Shown one piece after another: positions 86 through 5,460 of a stretch of 6,320 nucleotides of DNA. The notes under the pieces are model-generated. The model made no database searches. It was given only the letters and a program-made list of their open reading frames with translations, and was not told the DNA's origin. Numbering within the stretch: position 1 is the first letter of the stretch; the number at the start of each line of letters is the position of its first letter. This DNA is from a virus. The stretch is taken from IMG/VR virus record IMGVR_UViG_3300045988_030101, positions 1 through 6,320 of that record; one strand, given 5' to 3'. The translations under genes and the position numbers were made by a program.

Positions 86-240
86 GTATTTTTTTCTTCA
101 AGGTAGGTTATGACGCACCCTTTGTTTTGATGGACAATTCGTTCTCCGTGATTAATAGCCTCTTTTTCATTTTTGAACTTTTTTAAATAAAACAGCTCCT
201 GGCTGTAACTTCTTGCGATGATAATAATTCTTGTTTTCAT
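1..240 (-). CDS. N-terminal 80 codons of a 103-aa hypothetical protein whose ORF crosses the circular junction and continues at 6235 down to the stop at 6164. Protein: MKTRIIIIARSYSQELFYLKKFKNEKEAINHGERIVHQNKGCVITYLEEKNTGHRWEIDVIENVKEGLNISTLIVNSKKNAILVAKALKEYDDTLKVNINKNY.
   Basis: Manual reverse-complement translation from the ATG at 240-238. The frame stays open to position 1 and continues in phase into 6235..6164, where a TAA stop lies at 6166-6164. The ATG overlaps the TGA of the upstream 52-aa ORF (ATGA). It is missing from the ORF track because it runs off the window edge. I do not recognise the family. Confidence 0.55.
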   Translation of the reverse strand, partial: MKTRIIIIARSYSQELFYLKKFKNEKEAINHGERIVHQNKGCVITYLEEKNTGHRWEIDVIENVKEGLNISTLIVNSKKN

Positions 241-395
241 AATTGTTTAGTCTTGGTTATTGAATAATCTACTACTTCTACAATATCTCTGGCTCCTTTA
301 ACAAATAATTCACATGCTCTCTTTGTTTTGAGCGTTTGGCGAAGGATAATTTTTTTTCCTTCGGTTGTCTTGGCATTTGCTATTACTGTATACAT
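237..395 (-). CDS. Small basic hypothetical protein, 52 aa, missing from the ORF track: MYTVIANAKTTEGKKIILRQTLKTKRACELFVKGARDIVEVVDYSITKTKQL.
   Basis: Manual translation of the minus strand from the ATG at 395-393 to the TGA at 239-237. The stop overlaps the ATG of the following ORF (ATGA), which implies translational coupling. The protein has 11 K/R against 5 D/E and no His. A sigma70-like promoter candidate lies about 30 nt upstream on the same strand. Confidence 0.45.
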   Translation of the reverse strand: MYTVIANAKTTEGKKIILRQTLKTKRACELFVKGARDIVEVVDYSITKTKQL

Positions 396-420: not shown

Positions 421-455
421 GTAAAGATAATACAAAAAGTCCCCTTTGTCAAGTA
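421..455 (-). promoter_or_regulatory. Candidate promoter reading toward the 52-aa/103-aa genes. On the minus strand it reads TTGACA (447-452), a 17-nt spacer, then TATCTT (424-429).
   Basis: The minus-strand sequence is ...tacTTGACAaaggggactttttgtatTATCTTtacag... The -35 is perfect and the -10 matches 4 of 6 positions. It sits in the only large non-coding stretch, about 30 nt upstream of the 52-aa ORF start. A Bacteroidota host would use a different consensus (TTTG / TAnnTTTG), so this is tentative. Confidence 0.3.
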
Positions 456-521
456 AATATCCCATTTTAACATTACATTAACTTTTTATTACACCGCTTT
501 AACGTAATATTTTTAACTATT

Positions 522-616
522 GCGCGCCAGCCTGCAAGGCTGACAGCGAACAGGCTCCGCCGTCGAGAGCGTACTTCGGAGCGAAGCGACTAAGGAAAAC
601 GAAGTTTTCCGCCTTA
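522..616. promoter_or_regulatory. GC-rich cluster of stable stem-loops in an otherwise AT-rich genome. It is a candidate replication-origin/single-strand-initiation element and/or the 3' end of the VP2-VP4 transcript.
   Basis: Stem-loop A is 528-533 CAGCCT / 537-542 AGGCTG with loop GCA. Stem-loop B is 554-559 GCTCCG / 577-582 CGGAGC. 581-587 is GCGAAGC, the classic ultra-stable DNA mini-hairpin. Stem-loop C is 594-600 GGAAAAC / 604-610 GTTTTCC with a GAA triloop closed by C:G. 522-527 is GCGCGC. No ORF covers the region. It lies directly downstream of the rep gene on the coding strand. Confidence 0.45.
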
Positions 617-628
617 AACATTTAAAAA

Positions 629-650
629 TACTGTCTGTTTACTGTCTGGT
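629..650. repeat. 11-bp tandem direct repeat TACTGTCTGTT / TACTGTCTGGT, with a further partial unit (TACT) starting at 650. Iteron-like, and 7 nt from the rep (VP4) stop codon.
   Basis: Read directly: 629-639 tactgtctgtt, then 640-650 tactgtctggt. The 11-bp period is close to one helical turn. Confidence 0.6.
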
Positions 651-656
651 ACTATT

Positions 657-1787
657 TCACGCTTGCCCAAATGCACCCAATGCGTCGCAATGCTCCGAGG
701 TAGTGCACCTTCTTACTCTTTTGAACGTCCACATATTATCTTTAATGTATTGATTAGTAATATCTTCCCATTCTTGCGTTTTCTTTTGCATAGGAAAATC
801 GGCCTGTAACGGCAACTTTGTTAGATTTTCCGTGCTGAATTTTTCAGCTTGTTTTTTAGCCTCTGCAATAGCTCGTCGCTGTTTTTCTTCTTTTCTTCGT
901 TCTTTCATAGCATCCCATGCAATAGGGTCATCTCCCATTACCTCGCGTCCGTATTTTTGCCAATATCTTCTAAGGTTGTCGATAGTTTTCCAGTCATCAG
1001 CTTGTACTTTTTCTCCATATATCCATAGTAGCCCTCTATTAAGATTATTGATCCACATTTTCTCACGTTCTTTGTCTGTGAATATTTTATTTTTATAGTA
1101 TTTTGGCATAGCCATTTTTGTGCCGTTTCGGAACGTATAGGTAGCTACGTTTATATTTTTGTAATTTTGCTTTTGCCAGAGATAGTCCAATCTATCCATG
1201 TACTCAGCCCCTATACCTTTACTTGACAATACGATTTGCTTAAATTCTGGGTGTTTTGTGTCTACTTTTAACATATATTTTGTCATATAGTTGACACTTC
1301 TGCTATTACAGTATTGCCCGATAAATATGAATCCGTACTTCCAATGTTTTTTTATCAGTTCCGCACTTCTTTGCCCGAAAAATATACCGTGTAGATGTAT
1401 TCGGTCGTTGTCCTCTCCGAGTTCCGTAACACACCAATGGCGCATACTTTTGCCTGTATCTTTTCGCACTCTTTCTAAAAATAATCGTAGTCCTTTTGAA
1501 GCTATTTCGTTTGGATTTTCCTTCCAGTTTAACCCTGTTTTTTCTTCCAGATTTTTTATTCCTTCTGGTGAAATGGTCAAAGTTATAAAATAGCCGTAGT
1601 TTGAACGTAATTCCTCTTCTAGTCGTACTCTCCATTCTCTTTGTTTTTCCTTTCTGCATTCTATGCAACACCCACATTTTACGGGTATATAGAGAAGCCT
1701 CCTGTCTTTGCAAACGGGAGGTTTCCCTTTATTTTTTTTATTAGGTTTATATTTGGGATTTTTTATGTATGTTGGATATAAACACAT
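657..1787 (-). CDS. VP4: Replication initiation protein (Microviridae VP4, phiX174 gene A-like rolling-circle HUH endonuclease), 376 aa.
   Basis: The RCR motifs are present: FITLTISPE (motif I), HLHGIFF (HUH, motif II) and NYMTKYMLK (two Tyr spaced YxxKY as in phiX A YVAKY, motif III). There is an N-terminal Cys cluster, CKDRRLLYIPVKCGCCIECRKEK. The ATG at 1787-1785 lies 1 nt after the VP2 TGA (TGAcATG). Confidence 0.9.
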   Translation of the reverse strand: MCLYPTYIKNPKYKPNKKNKGKPPVCKDRRLLYIPVKCGCCIECRKEKQREWRVRLEEELRSNYGYFITLTISPEGIKNLEEKTGLNWKENPNEIASKGLRLFLERVRKDTGKSMRHWCVTELGEDNDRIHLHGIFFGQRSAELIKKHWKYGFIFIGQYCNSRSVNYMTKYMLKVDTKHPEFKQIVLSSKGIGAEYMDRLDYLWQKQNYKNINVATYTFRNGTKMAMPKYYKNKIFTDKEREKMWINNLNRGLLWIYGEKVQADDWKTIDNLRRYWQKYGREVMGDDPIAWDAMKERRKEEKQRRAIAEAKKQAEKFSTENLTKLPLQADFPMQKKTQEWEDITNQYIKDNMWTFKRVRRCTTSEHCDALGAFGQA

Positions 1788-1788
1788 G

Positions 1789-2925
1789 TCAATAGGATTC
1801 TGAATAGGATTCTGTTGTTACTTCTGTTCCTCTTCTTTTTGAAACGGTTTTTGTTTGTGTTCTTTTTCCACGAAGTTTAAAAAACATTTCAGTTATATTT
1901 TCTCCGAATTGCAAACCGATTTGAAGTCTTTCATTAAATGTTTGTTCTGTCCATCTTTCAATCATACCCTCTACTTGCTTACGATATGTTTCTTTATCCC
2001 AATTATGTTTATCAGCTAGCTCATTTAATTCTTTGGCCGCCGCTTTTAATTGTTCAATTTGTGCGTCTGCTACTTCTATATCTTTGAAAGTCTTTGCTAC
2101 CGAGGCTATTAGCTGGCAGTTCATATAATAAGCCGCGTCAATTCTGTCTTGTAAGGTTTTTTGGTCATACTCATATCCGAGTTTTTCTCGCTGGGACCCC
2201 CAATATACTTTGTGCGCCATTTCACTATAATATGTTGCTACTGCAAATGCTTCGCTGATTTCGGCTCTCGATAATCCTTCTTTCGCTTCATTGAGTCTTT
2301 GTATGGTTTCTTCTGTTGTCTTTTTTGCTTTGGAAAGTTCTGCCTCAGCTTCTTTGTAATTTTTGTCGGCGATAAGGTAATTAATTTTAGCGTCCATTTC
2401 TTCAATACGTTTGTACGCTTCTTCTGTATCTATACCTCCAATTTTTTTAGCTTCTTCATTTGCTTTGTTCGCTTGTGCTTCGGCTAACGCAATTTGTGCG
2501 TCATTCATTCTTCTTTGTTGTTCGATTTGTTGTGTTTGTAAAGCCATAGCGACAGGATTACCTTGTGGTTGTTCTGGGCTTGCTTGATGAGCTCCTCCGC
2601 TGGCACCCATGCCGCCGGCTCCGCTTTGTCCATACATTAGGCCAATATTTAATCCTGCATTTTTCAGATGTGCTACTTGGTTTTCTGCATTGGTATAATC
2701 CCAATAATCTTTTGCATATTGTTGAGATTGTGCGGATGCTTGTTGTTGATATTGATTTTGTAGCGCCATAATTCTTTTATTATAAGCCTCTTGTTCTTGC
2801 ATAGCTTTTTTTGGCGACCAACTTAAACCTAATGCTTGACTTATACCTCCTGTTATTAAGCCTGTCAGACTACTGGCTCCCGATCCGGCTAGTCCCGATG
2901 TAAATAATTTTCCGAAATTTCCCAT
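1789..2925 (-). CDS. VP2: DNA pilot / minor capsid protein (Microviridae VP2, functional analogue of phiX H), 378 aa.
   Basis: The N-terminus is Gly/Ser-rich (MGNFGKLFTSGLAGSGASSLTGLITGG). It has the conserved pilot-protein motif NAGLNIGLMYGQ, a long Q/A/E/K-rich coiled-coil-like middle and a basic C-terminus. It sits between VP1 and VP4 as in gut microviruses. Confidence 0.85.
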   Translation of the reverse strand: MGNFGKLFTSGLAGSGASSLTGLITGGISQALGLSWSPKKAMQEQEAYNKRIMALQNQYQQQASAQSQQYAKDYWDYTNAENQVAHLKNAGLNIGLMYGQSGAGGMGASGGAHQASPEQPQGNPVAMALQTQQIEQQRRMNDAQIALAEAQANKANEEAKKIGGIDTEEAYKRIEEMDAKINYLIADKNYKEAEAELSKAKKTTEETIQRLNEAKEGLSRAEISEAFAVATYYSEMAHKVYWGSQREKLGYEYDQKTLQDRIDAAYYMNCQLIASVAKTFKDIEVADAQIEQLKAAAKELNELADKHNWDKETYRKQVEGMIERWTEQTFNERLQIGLQFGENITEMFFKLRGKRTQTKTVSKRRGTEVTTESYSESY

Positions 2926-2950
2926 ATTGTTTATTTGTTTTAATTTTTCG

Positions 2951-2970
2951 CCCTTGTAATTTTACAAGGG
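2951..2970. promoter_or_regulatory. Perfect 20-bp palindrome CCCTTGTAATTTTACAAGGG, 26 nt upstream of the VP2 start. It is a candidate operator or promoter element.
   Basis: cccttgtaa (2951-2959) is the exact reverse complement of ttacaaggg (2962-2970). On the coding strand it contains TTGTAA (2967-2962), then 17 nt, then ATTAAA (2944-2939), which could be a weak sigma70-like promoter for VP2-VP4. That reading is speculative. Confidence 0.35.
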
Positions 2971-3015
2971 TTACACATATTACTAGATAATATATGCTAC
3001 ATGCGTACCATTTTG

Positions 3016-3054
3016 TGAAAAATGGAGGGAGTAGGAACTAAGTTCCTAACTCCC
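3016..3054 (-). terminator. Predicted intrinsic (rho-independent) terminator ending the small-genes/VP1/111-aa transcription unit.
   Basis: On the minus strand, stem GGGAGTTAGGAAC (3054-3042) pairs with GTTCCTACTCCC (3038-3027) with one bulged A and a 3-nt loop; the stem is capped by G/C pairs. It is followed immediately by TCCATTTTTCAC (3026-3015). It lies 20 nt downstream of the 111-aa ORF stop (3074). Confidence 0.5.
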
Positions 3055-3073
3055 AGCCTTTTAGATGTGCGGT

Positions 3074-3409
3074 TTATCCCGCCGATTCCTGTTGTGAAGA
3101 AGTGTCTCCTACTTCCTTCGAATCGAGGGCATTTTGTTCTTGTTGTTCTATTTTTCCGTAATTTTTAGATTTGGCAAGATTTGCTTGGTTGACTGCGTCC
3201 ATTGCTTGTTGTGCAATATCCCATCGGTCAGTTCTGATGTTATAAGCCGGTAGTACTCCGTCATCTCTGTTGGTATAGATAATTGGTGCACCGTCTGTGA
3301 TAGGTTCGTTGTTTTCTGTGATTCTTTTAACTTTTGTTTCAATAGATTCTCCGACTTGGTATTCGTAGTTGGTTTTTATTGGTCTTGGAAAAAAAGTTGG
3401 TTTTATCAT
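3074..3409 (-). CDS. Hypothetical acidic 111-aa protein immediately downstream of VP1. It may belong to the structural module (scaffolding or minor protein). The family is not recognised with confidence.
   Basis: ORF on the same strand, starting 11 nt after the VP1 stop. It is acidic overall (17 D/E against 13 K/R) with a Q/E/S-rich tail. The central segment PIIYTNRDDGVLPAYNIRTDRWDIAQQAMDAVNQ looks like a conserved core. The terminator follows. Confidence 0.5.
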   Translation of the reverse strand: MIKPTFFPRPIKTNYEYQVGESIETKVKRITENNEPITDGAPIIYTNRDDGVLPAYNIRTDRWDIAQQAMDAVNQANLAKSKNYGKIEQQEQNALDSKEVGDTSSQQESAG

Positions 3410-3420
3410 AATTGTAAATT

Positions 3421-5460
3421 TTAAATGTTAGGAATTACTTTTGCTGACATAACACGTCTTGGTTTGTAATTAAAAGCGATTTGAACCCAAAAATTTTGCG
3501 CTGTTAGATCTGTGTCTGCAAAAATGTTATTGTATAAGTGTGGTTGGATATATGTAGTATATGTATCTACATTATCGAAAATTCTGTTTAAACACATCCA
3601 CCCCTCATTTTCAATAAGTGCGAAATTTCCATATGTTTTATTCACATTGGTCATGTATTGTATCCATGCAGGTTGTTTTCCTATGCTTGTATTTAAGTCT
3701 TCCCTTACGCAGGAACTATTTAGATGTCTATACAATCTGTCTTGAAAACCTATTCCGTCTAATTGAGGCTTATGTAAGTCATCCAGTGATTCGAGGTATA
3801 AATCCCATTCGTTGCCTTGAAAATAATCGACTCGTGGAGTGATAGAGGTGATACAAAATATGTATCCAGGTTCATCTGCCTTGAATATAATATTTCCTCC
3901 TTTGTGATTTGTCGCTATACCCCTACCGGCTAATGTACCTAATGGTTGGTCCTCGGTTCCACTGTTATTAACAACTTCCTGGAACTCAATTTCGAGCGAG
4001 CTGCCGCCAAGATATAGAGGTGTTTCGACATGGTTGAGTCCTCCACTTGTGTATACGGTCTGGATCCATGCATTATAACTTCCGTCGCTTATGGCGATTC
4101 TGTTGAGCATGGTATATACTTTTTTCGCCAGATTGAGAGTGTCGAGCGTAAAGCTGCCCGAACTTGTATCGATAGCTGTTATAGAGTTGATACCTGTTTC
4201 CCCGTCAATCCATTCGGTATTTACCCAGTTGGTATTGATGTCACTTTGGTAAGTTTTTAACGCTAATCCTACCATAGGGTATGCGCTATTTGGTACTAAT
4301 GTTGGAGTATTTGATGTGTCATAAACGTCAACGACACTTTCATATAGTTGCGTTATAAATTCATCGGTTGATACATATTGTTGTTTTCCAGCGGATAGTA
4401 TATTTTCTCTCATATCATCTATTGAAGAGAGATTAAATTTACTGTAATTGCCGCTTATGGTATAAGCATTTACTTTGCTTGTTATGTTTATCGACTTTGT
4501 TGCTGTTTCCCCGTCTAGTGTTTTAAATTTGTAAGCCCGGAGAAGGGGTTTTCCCGATATCGGTGCTATTAAATCCGATACATCCTCTAATACTCCTTCA
4601 CCTATTAATTGTCCAATAGACCTCATAGCTAAATCTATTGTTCGATCTTCGCCGGTAGGAGTAAATACGATATTTCCGTTGAGATAAGTGTTATTTAAAT
4701 CGTAATTTTCTAAGTCTCGAAATGCAATAACTACACCATCTCCTTGTATTGTTATTACTTGCGATGTTGGATTTTGAATCATTTGTTCTATTCTATACAT
4801 TCCATTTGCAAACGGTTCTCCTATTGCTGCAAAAAAATATGTATTAGGTACTGTACTGAGATTTGAACTTGCTAACGTTCTTGCTCCGTCAATTGTGTAG
4901 AATGATTCCTCTTGTTTGTTGGCATAATAATTTTTGAATATATCATAATACATTAATGCCTTCGTGATATTCCACGTGAACTCAGTTCCCGATTCTTTAT
5001 TAAGACTCTTATACCCCAAATAAGATAGTAGGCTGCTTGGGTGTATTTGTCTTAAAAGTGTGTCGTTTGAGCCCTTTAACTTTTTCTCTAAATCCCAATC
5101 TGAAGCGTCTATTTTGACTACGGGAAATTTAACCTTTTTCATATCAAGTCCGATGTTCAGGGTATTGTTATGCAGCATTGCGTTATATAATCGGATTGGA
5201 CAGAAGAAAAAGTCGTTTTGCTGTTTAAAACTTCCGAATAGAGGTCCAATAGTTGGGTGTGTTAAAGTATGACATCTTGTTTGAATAGGGTATGTGTCTC
5301 CCGGTAATAATAATTCTGTCATGGTTGGTACTAAAACTCCCGGAGCCATAGAGGTTCTCATTACAAAACTATTGTCGTGTGTACTACGGTTGTAATTGTT
5401 TAACCGTGTAATCATTTTTTTTCCACCTCCAAGGGTGTTTTTTCCAATACTTACTTTCAT
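3421..5460 (-). CDS. VP1: Major capsid protein (Microviridae VP1, phiX F-like jelly-roll), 679 aa.
   Basis: The N-terminal signature typical of microvirus F/VP1 is present: NNYNRSTHDNSFVMRTSMAPGVLVPTMTELLLPGDTY. The size, with large insertions, fits the Alpavirinae-type 650-780 aa VP1. It is the longest ORF. Its ATG overlaps the upstream stop (ATGA at 5460-5457). Confidence 0.92.
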   Translation of the reverse strand: MKVSIGKNTLGGGKKMITRLNNYNRSTHDNSFVMRTSMAPGVLVPTMTELLLPGDTYPIQTRCHTLTHPTIGPLFGSFKQQNDFFFCPIRLYNAMLHNNTLNIGLDMKKVKFPVVKIDASDWDLEKKLKGSNDTLLRQIHPSSLLSYLGYKSLNKESGTEFTWNITKALMYYDIFKNYYANKQEESFYTIDGARTLASSNLSTVPNTYFFAAIGEPFANGMYRIEQMIQNPTSQVITIQGDGVVIAFRDLENYDLNNTYLNGNIVFTPTGEDRTIDLAMRSIGQLIGEGVLEDVSDLIAPISGKPLLRAYKFKTLDGETATKSINITSKVNAYTISGNYSKFNLSSIDDMRENILSAGKQQYVSTDEFITQLYESVVDVYDTSNTPTLVPNSAYPMVGLALKTYQSDINTNWVNTEWIDGETGINSITAIDTSSGSFTLDTLNLAKKVYTMLNRIAISDGSYNAWIQTVYTSGGLNHVETPLYLGGSSLEIEFQEVVNNSGTEDQPLGTLAGRGIATNHKGGNIIFKADEPGYIFCITSITPRVDYFQGNEWDLYLESLDDLHKPQLDGIGFQDRLYRHLNSSCVREDLNTSIGKQPAWIQYMTNVNKTYGNFALIENEGWMCLNRIFDNVDTYTTYIQPHLYNNIFADTDLTAQNFWVQIAFNYKPRRVMSAKVIPNI

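Follow-up and report, generated by a model that had tools for sequence, protein, structure and literature searches.

In phage phiX174, intergenic hairpins include a primosome assembly site in F-G and weak terminators or mRNA stabilisers in J-F, F-G, G-H and H-A; such hairpins, together with REP-type elements, are thought to act as RNA 3′-end structures. The complementary-strand origin of phage G4, as annotated in GenBank, consists of three hairpins, the last of which has a GCGAAAGC apex and is followed by CTA and then by CTG, the primer start. Mini-hairpin DNA motifs of the GCGNAGC and GCGNNAGC types are described at the single-strand priming sites of G4, St-1, alpha3 and RSF1010 ssiA (PMC13037366). 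In the reekeekee- and roodoodoo-microviruses, conserved intergenic hairpins with compensatory substitutions were suggested, but not demonstrated, to be minus-strand origins, in a paper that also cites the primosome hairpin of phiX174 (PMC9865509).

We examined a window of 6,320 nucleotides that is the genome of a microvirus. Its Rep (PF23343) and F-type capsid genes all lie on the minus strand, the closest capsid to its own is that of Dulem virus 224 (59%), and its host is probably a member of the Bacteroidales. Gut microviruses of this order are abundant and almost none has been cultured; we know of no description of the step that turns their single-stranded DNA into the replicative form. The intergenic region 3′ of rep (396–656) is one of only two sizeable non-coding regions in the window, and within it an island at 516–620, a short way 3′ of rep, has a GC content of 0.53, against about 0.3–0.4 in its surroundings (501–600, 0.53; low-coordinate side, 0.27–0.37; rep side, 0.32–0.47). 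A promoter scan placed TTGACA at 452–447 and TATCTTTA at 429–422, ahead of the minus-strand gene at 237–395, and this promoter resembles what we take to be the Bacteroidetes consensus. An open reading frame listed at 310–465 overlaps the promoter and probably does not represent a gene. The parts of the region are the following.

657–1787, minus strand: rep, with its stop codon at 657–659.
629–650, minus strand: tandem 11-mers ACCAGACAGTA AACAGACAGTA (coding sense), between the rep stop and the cassette.
516–620, minus strand: the whole hairpin cassette, about 105 nt, with variants in relatives; covariance model R1.
612–620, minus strand: conserved unpaired 5′ motif TGTTTAAGG (family TGTWTAAGG), invariant columns in alignment A1.
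594–610, minus strand: hairpin A, GGAAAAC-TTC-GTTTTCC on the coding-sense strand, variable in its stem and loop letters and fixed in its site after TGTWTAAGG.
578–590, minus strand: optional module GTCGCTTCGCTCC, whose complement holds GCGAAGC; found in long forms, missing from the 86–91-nt forms.
567–573, minus strand: linker TACGCTC between hairpins A and B, near-invariant in alignments A1 and A2.
549–564, minus strand: hairpin B, GAC-GGC-GGA-GCC-(T)-GTT on the coding-sense strand, with the apex heptamer GCGGAGC at 554–560.
543–548, minus strand: unpaired linker CGCTGT directly 3′ of the foot of hairpin B, with CTG at 546–544.
528–542, minus strand: hairpin C, CAGCCT-TGC-AGGCTG on the coding-sense strand, with an invariant TGC loop.
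516–527, minus strand: conserved 3′ tail GCGCGCAATAGT (family (G)CGnGCAAT(A)GT) in alignments A1 and A2.
508–521, no strand assigned: AT-rich arm pairing with 617–630 (inverted repeat I1, 14 nt, 86% complementary), which could close the cassette into a multi-branch fold.
422–515, minus strand: downstream intergenic part, with GTTAA repeats and then the promoter of the next gene (237–395, minus strand).

Along the coding-sense strand the cassette runs from TGTTTAAGG through hairpin A, the optional module, TACGCTC, hairpin B, CGCTGT and hairpin C to GCGCGCAATAGT. The GC-rich elements from which the original prediction was built are all present: GCGCGC (522–527), CAGCCT-GCA-AGGCTG (528–542), GCTCCG (554–559), CGGAGC (577–582), GCGAAGC (581–587) and GGAAAAC-GAA-GTTTTCC (594–610), as is the 11-bp tandem TACTGTCTGTT/TACTGTCTGGT next to the rep stop (629–650, 10/11 identical). 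The stem proposed between GCTCCG and CGGAGC is not conserved; it depends on the optional module, missing from many relatives, and is in competition with the conserved hairpin B (549–564). The GAA mini-hairpins do lie on the non-coding strand, as had been said, but as an argument they are on the wrong strand. The heptamer of the mini-hairpin class on the coding-sense, presumed virion, strand is instead GCGGAGC (554–560), the apex of hairpin B, which had been passed over; GCGNAGC occurs five times in the window, against 1.04 expected.

About 55 related microvirus genomes carry the cassette, one copy each, in 44 distinct variants, always 3′ of rep and in gene orientation. In 31 of 35 genomes it reaches 87.5% identity at 86% coverage, and model R1 matches the window at 516–573 on the minus strand with 80 bits (E = 1e-18). 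Covariation in the hairpins bears out the proposal that a conserved, structure-constrained single-strand element occupies this microvirus intergenic region, and structure is conserved over sequence throughout hairpins A and C and in the lower stem of hairpin B. Hairpin C is the clearest case: 98.9% of its cells are paired, four of its six pairs change on both sides, and its arm takes the forms CAGCCT, AAGCCT, ATTCCT, ATTCCG and ATTCCC, each with a matching partner. No shuffle of 500 reached its covariation score, and slid controls were only 32–50% paired. Hairpin A has 21 distinct sequences that all fold at the same position, with stems such as GGAGAAC/GTTCTCC, GGAAAGC/GCTTTCC, GGGAAAGCAT/ATGCTTTCT and GGAGATGTAGAAT/ATTCTACACCTCC. 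In hairpin B the upper three pairs are paired in 27–30 of 30 variants, and the lower stem covaries (AACG/CGTT, GACG/CGTC, AATG/CATT, GATGA/TCATC). A middle stem put forward by RNAalifold, ACGGC/GCTGT, is 94.6% paired with no double-sided changes; it is broken in L181, whose changes preserve hairpin B instead, and we keep it merely as an alternative.

TGTWTAAGG, TACGCTC, CGCTGT, the TGC loop and CGnGCAAT are invariant or nearly so, which argues for recognition by a protein, beyond stem stability. Specifically, CTGT is invariant in all 30 distinct B-C variants, and its CTG begins 2–3 nt past the foot of hairpin B (2 nt in the window); TGTWTAAGG was found in 44/44 variants, but doubled as the anchor by which these were extracted. 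The types of A, B and C, like the upstream modules, are combined in mosaic fashion across the variants, and a relative of the optional module, AGCTCGCTTCGCTCGGGG, lies upstream of hairpin A in other genomes. The arm at 508–521 is the predicted closing stem in both DNA and RNA folds; its conservation is approximate and its sequence of low complexity. The 3′ tail takes part in a direct repeat with the rep 3′ end (516–532 and 651–667, 76% identical), and in relatives the repeats bracketing the cassette extend to AATAGTAYCAG.... Downstream of the cassette, relatives keep GTTAAA..GTTAAT..GTTAAAA-GGGATATTT and TATCTTTG/A.

Folding of the single sequence gave a modest signal. Against shuffled controls, by which the original prediction was to be judged, the minus strand folded better as DNA (z = −2.32; 2 of 200 shuffles as good) and the result for the plus strand was weaker (z = −1.44; 21 of 200); the minus strand as RNA gave z = −2.29. 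Comparative evidence from the aligned sequences, rather than single-sequence folding, shows that the cassette is more than chance. With RNA parameters the sense strand of the 44 variants is on average 4.3 kcal/mol more stable than the antisense strand (−33.1 vs −28.8 kcal/mol) and is the stabler one in 36 of them, whereas with DNA parameters the strands are near equal (−16.8 vs −16.9 kcal/mol).

Absence from close relatives had been named as a result that would refute the prediction; the cassette is kept within the clade and is absent from the next-closest lineages. It is missing from relatives with 40–47% Rep identity, including the prophage L098. Several of these have no GC-rich hairpins after rep at all, and at the equivalent site of more distant relatives there are unrelated clusters of GC-rich hairpins, which in L037–L039 end in a canonical hairpin and T-run. 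The exception is L076/L080, which has no other DNA similarity to the window and a Rep only 26% identical, and in which the cassette is inverted relative to all genes. The shared segment is 216 nt long and 86% identical to that of L024, with a 61-nt core that matches the window at 100% identity; the BLAST similarity stops at AATAGT in the cassette 3′ tail, and the inverted L076 copy lies at the 3′ end of a gene, VP2. Read on the coding strand of L076/L080, the copy has neither the CTG linker nor the wobbles of hairpin B. An inverted cassette in an unrelated microvirus shows that it moves by recombination, and that non-coding modules, besides genes, are exchanged between lineages.

The B-C pattern had no match in 185,579 bacterial genomes of GTDB. 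Three IMG/VR pattern scans gave only the window clade, L076/L080 and chance matches in GC-rich contigs, and one metagenome pattern scan likewise gave, among the matches listed, only the window clade, L076/L080 and chance matches. GenBank phages gave no DNA-level match to the window by blastn, Rfam 15 gave none for the whole window at E ≤ 1, and ARAGORN found no tRNA or tmRNA. A host-derived sequence or prophage junction was rejected, given the GTDB result and the lack of the cassette in the only related prophage, L098. A host REP/MITE repeat was rejected on the same GTDB count and on the single copy per phage genome; like REP/BIME clusters, the cassette is a modular set of short GC-rich hairpins at an operon 3′ end, in either orientation, but REP elements are multi-copy in host chromosomes and the cassette is single-copy, microvirus-specific and absent from the bacterial genomes searched.

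Among the described systems closest to the cassette is the primase-dependent G4-type oric of phages G4, St-1, alpha3 and phiK. Both lie in a microvirus intergenic region, span about 100–140 nt and form three hairpins on the (in the window, presumed) virion strand; in both, one hairpin is capped by a GCGNAGC or GCGNNAGC motif (GCGAAAGC in G4, GCGGAGC in the window); and in both an unpaired CTG follows 2–3 nt past the capped hairpin, as the primer start in G4 and a candidate start in the window. An origin of this type would be expected to be non-coding and on the packaged strand, and the cassette is non-coding and gene-oriented in the roughly 55 genomes, which would put it on the packaged strand if, as we assume, the virion strand is the coding strand; the L076/L080 copy is inverted. 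It would also have about three stable hairpins able to stay free of single-strand binding protein (SSB), for which the covarying hairpins A, B and C are candidates, and a mini-hairpin apex near the start with an unpaired CTG a few nucleotides 3′ of it, both of which are present.

Despite these similarities, there is no detectable sequence similarity to G4: model R1 has no match in the G4 origin region, and blastn against GenBank phages revealed no homology to the G4, St-1 or alpha3 origins. The window cassette also has an additional hairpin, C, 3′ of the CTG, and its host is probably a member of the Bacteroidales; the likeness is one of layout, with the start annotated in G4 and proposed by analogy in the window. 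The G4 origin, which likewise folds into three hairpins, does so more strongly (z = −4.7 vs −2.3 for the cassette). The hairpins of the reekeekee- and roodoodoo-microviruses are, like the cassette, intergenic, comparison-derived and marked by compensatory changes, but they belong to other lineages and differ in sequence and position, being one 64-nt hairpin or two of 13–22 nt; neither a modular cassette nor inverted transfer was reported for them (PMC9865509). As in phiX174, GC-rich hairpins here lie at microvirus gene ends and possibly act in both single-stranded DNA and mRNA; unlike the cassette, the phiX174 terminators have T-rich tails and the PriA-type site is a single hairpin of about 55 nt, and there is no sequence relation.

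On this basis we tentatively interpret the cassette as a complementary-strand (minus-strand) origin, a host-recognised single-strand signal on the coding-sense strand; an initiation signal of this kind, as originally predicted, is still the best single reading, though one we hold with less than even confidence. It takes the virion strand to be the coding strand, as in known Microviridae, the structure to act as DNA rather than RNA, and the reader to be, presumably, a primase. The circular single-stranded DNA would enter the cell and be coated by SSB, while hairpins A, B and C would remain folded, with the short invariant linker CGCTGT accessible between the last two. There a host priming enzyme, in the simplest case DnaG primase, would begin an RNA primer at CTG, as in G4, with hairpin B and its GCGGAGC cap as the putative counterpart of G4 hairpin I, and extension of the primer would yield the double-stranded replicative form. 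We know of no account of the trinucleotide preference of Bacteroidales primase, and the three-hairpin element with its invariant CTG linker offers a testable candidate for the conversion step as well as for the site that this enzyme recognises. The strand is favoured by the G-T wobbles of hairpin B, which assign the structure to the minus (coding-sense) strand, and a signal read by the host accounts better than one read by Rep for the exchange of the cassette with a microvirus of only 26% Rep identity.

Several observations speak against an origin. The inverted copy in L076/L080 is either non-functional as an origin or shows orientation to be irrelevant, and the relatives with 40–47% Rep identity that lack the cassette must have their minus-strand origin elsewhere. 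The other non-coding region, 2926–3080, is more structured and more widely conserved and could hold both origins. The asymmetry in stability between the strands appears with RNA parameters and not with DNA parameters. Hairpin A has no consistent strand preference; its wobbles disagree between lineages, and strand assignment by them was dropped. Finally, an intact GNA loop caps hairpin B in no more than about half of the 30 distinct B-C variants.

A role at the RNA 3′ end is almost as likely as the origin role. It is possible that the hairpins act at the end of the rep (VP2-rep) transcript, where they would halt RNA polymerase, or make it pause, ahead of the next promoter, or else shield the mRNA from 3′ exonucleases; the hairpins of an origin would also form at the rep mRNA 3′ end and may have a second role there. 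Stable stems alone would suffice for such a function, which would work in either orientation, and the inverted L076 copy is likewise at a gene 3′ end. The cassette comes directly after the gene that closes a long operon, a promoter follows about 65 nt further on, and the strand asymmetry seen with RNA parameters is on the side expected of a transcript. Some upstream modules have a perfect GGCC-TTCG-GGCC on the coding strand, which in RNA is the unusually stable C(UUCG)G tetraloop, and the unrelated GC-rich clusters of distant relatives occupy the same site, including those ending in a canonical terminator hairpin in L037–L039. Hairpin clusters have also been proposed to act as terminators (PMC8355165).

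Other observations weaken the RNA reading. The original prediction did not favour a simple intrinsic terminator, and the cassette is not a canonical one: a terminator scan of the coding (minus) strand over 396–656 was empty, and hairpins A, B and C are followed by TTAGTC, CGCTGT and GCGCGC, none of them a T-run, whereas Bacteroidales hosts use canonical terminators (L098 flanks). A pure stability element would not be expected to keep unpaired linkers and a loop invariant. The G-T wobbles of hairpin B, moreover, can equally be explained by C-to-T deamination of a single-stranded virion strand.

We consider it unlikely that the cassette is a horizontally moving non-coding module or recombination relic with little or no function for the phage, kept by exchange between co-infecting microviruses. 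The inverted segment in the otherwise dissimilar L076/L080 would be accounted for, as would the mosaic of types and modules, the direct repeats bracketing the cassette and a GC content foreign to the genome. A relic would not be expected to keep to one copy, one site and one orientation across about 55 genomes, or to lack copies in the bacterial genomes and elsewhere in IMG/VR. In addition, the compensatory changes and invariant linkers reveal purifying selection, and the L076 junctions have neither terminal inverted repeats nor a target duplication. A functional version of the same idea, which we regard as improbable, is that the host reads the cassette as a self-contained non-coding module, one that passes between unrelated microviruses and is either orientation-tolerant or sets which strand is primed; it would then be a mobile origin or regulatory cassette of single-stranded DNA phages, and the AATAGT-type border repeats might be marks of Rep-mediated (HUH) cut-and-join events.

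It is very unlikely that the cassette is the plus-strand origin, at which Rep would bind the 11-bp repeats as iterons and nick near the hairpins, for example at GC/AATAGT 3′ of hairpin C. Substrates of HUH nucleases usually consist of a covarying hairpin and, after it, an invariant single-stranded tail, a layout that the cassette shares; AATAGT presumably also follows the f1 gene II nick site, Pfam PF23343 groups the window's Rep with G2P, and the L076 similarity stops exactly at AATAGT. The repeats themselves do not behave as the iterons that had been suggested: they number 0, 1, 2 or 4 over the 44 variants, are present in about half, and are swapped for unrelated hairpin modules in genomes with 75–90% identical Rep. 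Some relatives have a third, degenerate 11-mer copy 3′ of the cassette. The phage with a 26%-identical Rep that has the cassette in common carries its own phiX-like AACTTGATAT on the coding strand. In the window, a phiX-like nick motif gave chance-level matches only, and CAATAGT is not significantly enriched.

The intergenic region 2926–3080 is, judging from its sequence, the better candidate for the site that Rep recognises or nicks. No other DNA in the genome is as conserved (93% identity over 35 genomes vs 80–84% for coding DNA); it has a 50-nt block identical in 22–23 of 23 genomes and folds more strongly than the cassette (z = −5.1). Several relatives with 40–47% Rep identity and no cassette retain the core of the region, GGTACGCATGTA. 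Two functionally distinct non-coding regions in one genome would be useful for building synthetic or rescued genomes of the clade.

Least probable is an independent small RNA gene or an Xer-type attachment site. Inversion would do no harm to a self-contained gene or to a double-stranded site. Rfam had no match at E ≤ 1, no tRNA was detected, inspection by eye showed no conserved promoter beside the shared segment in either orientation and no dif-like palindrome-spacer-palindrome in the clade's intergenic region, where the GTTAA motifs are direct and not inverted, and no cassette-bearing prophage occurs in the 185,579 genomes. Neither a dif-like site nor a Bacteroidetes-type promoter was seen inside the cassette, and the arrangement that defines an Xer/dif (IMEX) site, about 28 bp with two inverted 11-bp arms, a 6–8-bp spacer and flanking direct repeats, is absent from the window clade. 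An attachment site had some appeal, as dif-like integration has been proposed for Bacteroidetes microviruses (PMC3091885) and 29-nt dif-like repeats (ATTTATCAYAATGTTAATTATAATAATTT) lie on both sides of the related prophage L098, which would place its attP in the equivalent intergenic region. The long contigs among our matches are mostly wrap-around assemblies of circular genomes and not prophages, and the apparent host junction in contig L224 is an assembly joined via a CRISPR spacer.

The 6,320-nt window is apparently an entire microvirus genome whose genes all lie on the minus strand; it has no DNA-level match among 50,697 GenBank phage records, and the closest capsid, from a lemur-faeces microvirus, is 59% identical. 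We assume that the virions package the coding-sense strand (the minus strand of the window), as, to our knowledge, do those of all characterized Microviridae. The element of interest is a GC-rich cluster of three hairpins (A, B and C) 3′ of rep, hereafter the cassette (516-620, minus strand).

Features of the window, ordered 5′ to 3′ on the coding-sense strand
3421..5460, minus, F-type capsid gene
1789..2925, minus, VP2, a pilot-protein homologue
657..1787, minus, Rep (PF23343)
612-620, minus, TGTWTAAGG
594-610, minus, hairpin A
578-590, minus, optional GTCGCTTCGCTCC module
567-573, minus, TACGCTC
549-564, minus, hairpin B
543-548, minus, CGCTGT
528-542, minus, hairpin C
516-527, minus, (G)CGnGCAATAGT
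422-515, minus, downstream of the cassette: three to four GTTAA(A) direct repeats and two GGGAYWTTT repeats, leading into the promoter
452-447 and 429-422, minus, promoter downstream of the cassette (TTGACA and TATCTTTA)
310-465, minus, listed 51-aa ORF

Every motif named in the original prediction is present and correctly placed, and the GC content reaches 0.53 in 501-600, compared with 0.27-0.37 in the flank at lower coordinates and 0.32-0.47 in the flank towards rep. Taken alone, however, the window sequence folds only modestly better than its shuffles (z = -2.3 for the minus strand and -1.4 for the plus strand folded as DNA, and -2.3 for the minus strand folded as RNA). For the mini-hairpin-class heptamer GCGNAGC, 1.04 copies are expected in the whole window and five are present, a count reached by 1 of 200 shuffles; two copies lie inside the cassette, one per strand, and three lie in coding DNA at 2249, 2618 and 5883.

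A Rep search of IMG/VR yielded 25 genomes at 75-91% Rep identity and 19 more mostly at ~40%, and pattern scans added one further viral lineage and at least 29 metagenome contigs, giving at least 44 distinct cassette versions in at least about 55 genomes. Genomes of the clade carry a single cassette each, ~40-250 nt past the rep stop and in the same orientation as the genes. In 31 of 35 genomes the cassette aligns across 86% of its length at 87.5% identity, a value that equals or slightly exceeds that of the flanking coding DNA (80-84%), and within the clade the types of A, B and C and the upstream modules occur in mosaic combinations. A covariance model of the B-C core found no match in relatives with 40-47% Rep identity.

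The comparison of variants defines the hairpins. In hairpin C, pairing is 98.9% with double-sided changes at four of six pairs, a covariation score matched by none of 500 shuffles, and pairing falls to 32-50% once the partner columns are slid. Hairpin A has 21 different sequences, some with entirely different stems, that share one folding position. Hairpin B was absent from the original prediction; 27-30 of 30 variants pair at its apex, GGC-GGA-GCC, compensatory changes have arisen independently in its lower stem (AACG/CGTT, GACG/CGTC, AATG/CATT and GATGA/TCATC), and its G-T wobbles become A-C mismatches if read on the opposite strand. The stem GCTCCG...CGGAGC proposed originally needs the optional module and competes with hairpin B. 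An alternative stem from RNAalifold, ACGGC/GCTGT, is well paired without double changes and was kept only as an alternative; the one variant that breaks it (L181) has changes that preserve the hairpin B model. The cassette is flanked by an imperfect direct repeat (516-532 versus 651-667; the rep-end copy is GGCAAGCGTGAAATAGT, the cassette-end copy GGCTGGCGCGCAATAGT), which in some relatives is lengthened to AATAGTAYCAGMSAGT at both borders; events at this sequence may have given rise to the cassette or may mediate its exchange.

We class the cassette as a putative structured intergenic hairpin signal of a single-stranded DNA phage. Mini-hairpins of the class defined as GCGNAGC or GCGNNAGC occur at the priming sites of G4, St-1, alpha3 and RSF1010 ssiA, and the motif of the N4 virion-polymerase promoter is GCGGAGC (PMC13037366). 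The original argument from GAA loops is not supported; on the coding-sense strand the heptamer of this class is GCGGAGC and caps hairpin B. After hairpin B comes CG and then an invariant CTG within the unpaired linker that separates two hairpins. This layout resembles a G4-type origin: the GenBank record of G4 annotates a complementary-strand origin with the RNA primer starting at CTG, and its virion strand has three hairpins, the last with a GCGAAAGC apex, followed by CTA and then CTG. However, the two have no sequence in common, and because the cassette fails the homology test we do not assign it to the G4-type family. Conserved intergenic hairpins of other microviruses have likewise been read as complementary-strand initiation signals, without proof (PMC9865509). 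On the strength of the G4-like layout and the invariant unpaired motifs, we tentatively prefer the reading that the cassette may be a host-read complementary-strand initiation signal. It would offer a testable handle on the conversion of single-stranded DNA to the replicative form in abundant gut phages.

A role at RNA 3′ ends is nearly as likely, for several reasons. RNA parameters give the sense strand a stability advantage over the antisense (-33.1 versus -28.8 kcal/mol; an advantage seen in 36 of 44 variants), while with DNA parameters the two are equally stable; a perfect hairpin of the CUUCGG type is present on the coding strand of some upstream modules; and the cassette sits at the operon end, directly ahead of a promoter. 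In more distant relatives (L030, L033, L034 and L036-L039, ~40% Rep identity), unrelated hairpin clusters rich in GC occupy this position, in the 260 nt after rep, some with GCAA loops and three finishing in a canonical terminator, a hairpin plus T-run (CCCCCC...GGGGGGGTTTTTAT). Four other relatives (L026, L027, L040 and L041) have no such cluster in those 260 nt, so their complementary strand must be primed elsewhere. The cassette could fulfil both roles at once, as may the intergenic hairpins of phiX174. The original framing as an origin or a terminator is partly supported: the complementary-strand signal remains our preference, and a canonical terminator is set aside because all hairpins of the cassette lack a T-run. 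The element matches no tRNA or Rfam family, and host sequence or a prophage junction is rejected, as a scan of 185,579 bacterial and archaeal genomes with the 23-base B-C pattern gave no hit.

The 11-bp tandem between the rep stop and the cassette (629-650) had been proposed as a Rep iteron. It has two copies in about half of the variants, one in others and four in one, and is missing altogether where unrelated GC-rich hairpin modules occupy the same space, despite Rep being 75-90% identical throughout; this inconstancy speaks against an iteron. The GTTAA(A), GGGAYWTTT and promoter motifs of 422-515 are preserved throughout the clade and make better candidates for iterons than the 11-mers. We take this promoter to fit the Bacteroidetes consensus TTTG-N19-21-TAnnTTTG. 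The ORF at 310-465 is probably not a gene, since its start falls within the conserved GTTAAAATGGGAT motif and part of it coincides with the promoter; the next gene has its conserved start codon, ATG, at 395 (ORF 237..395).

The other intergenic region, 2926-3080, is the most conserved DNA of the genome (93% identity at 99% coverage, versus 80-84% for genes) and contains four hairpins (fold z = -5.1). When k-mers were counted across 23 genomes, a single long invariant stretch emerged genome-wide, CTCCCTCCATTTTTCACAAAATGGTACGCATGTAGCATATATTATCTAGTA at 2981-3031 (minus), with a 50-nt block shared unchanged by 22-23 of them; the core GGTACGCATGTA is kept at the equivalent position in several relatives with 40-47% Rep identity. 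Given this conservation and structure, the inconstant tandem, and the blank result of the B-C model in those relatives, Rep recognition is far more likely to be located here than at the cassette, and we regard the region as a strong candidate to hold the plus-strand origin and the site nicked by Rep.

The cassette also occurs in a different microvirus (contigs L076/L105 and L080), whose Rep shows 26% identity along a short stretch, whose VP1 has 789 aa, and which has no DNA similarity to the window clade apart from this segment. The 216-nt segment of L076 and L080 is 86% identical to the cassette of the related locus L024, with a 61-nt B-C core 100% identical to the window; it is placed between VP2 and rep in inverted orientation with respect to all genes (within L076 1-500; L080 995-1211), and the similarity stops exactly at ...GCAATAGT. 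It follows that the cassette moves by recombination between lineages, independent of a cognate Rep, and that in the L076 lineage at least either it is not used as a strand-specific signal or its orientation is irrelevant. Such inverted transfer between microviruses is unusual. This phage has a GCGAAAGC hairpin in its intergenic region and, shortly before rep on its coding strand, AACTTGATATATATAG, which we take to resemble the phiX174 origin CAACTTG/ATATTAATAAC.

L098, a microvirus prophage whose Rep is 47% identical, resides in a MAG of Candidatus Aphodosoma (Bacteroidales) and lacks the hairpin cassette. Dif-like direct repeats of 29 nt (ATTTATCAYAATGTTAATTATAATAATTT) flank it at 3162-3190 and 9142-9170, 5980 nt apart, and its attP falls in the intergenic region that corresponds to that of the cassette. 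In the metagenome contig L224 (locus 5650-6530), host-like DNA (UvrD helicase, GC about 0.5) is joined to a CRISPR array with a 47-nt repeat (GTTGTGATTCGCTTTCAAATTTGTATCTTTGACATATTAAATACAGC), whose last spacer continues directly into microvirus sequence of this clade. A prophage is ruled out, as the junction is a CRISPR spacer, and the spacer match links the clade to a host.
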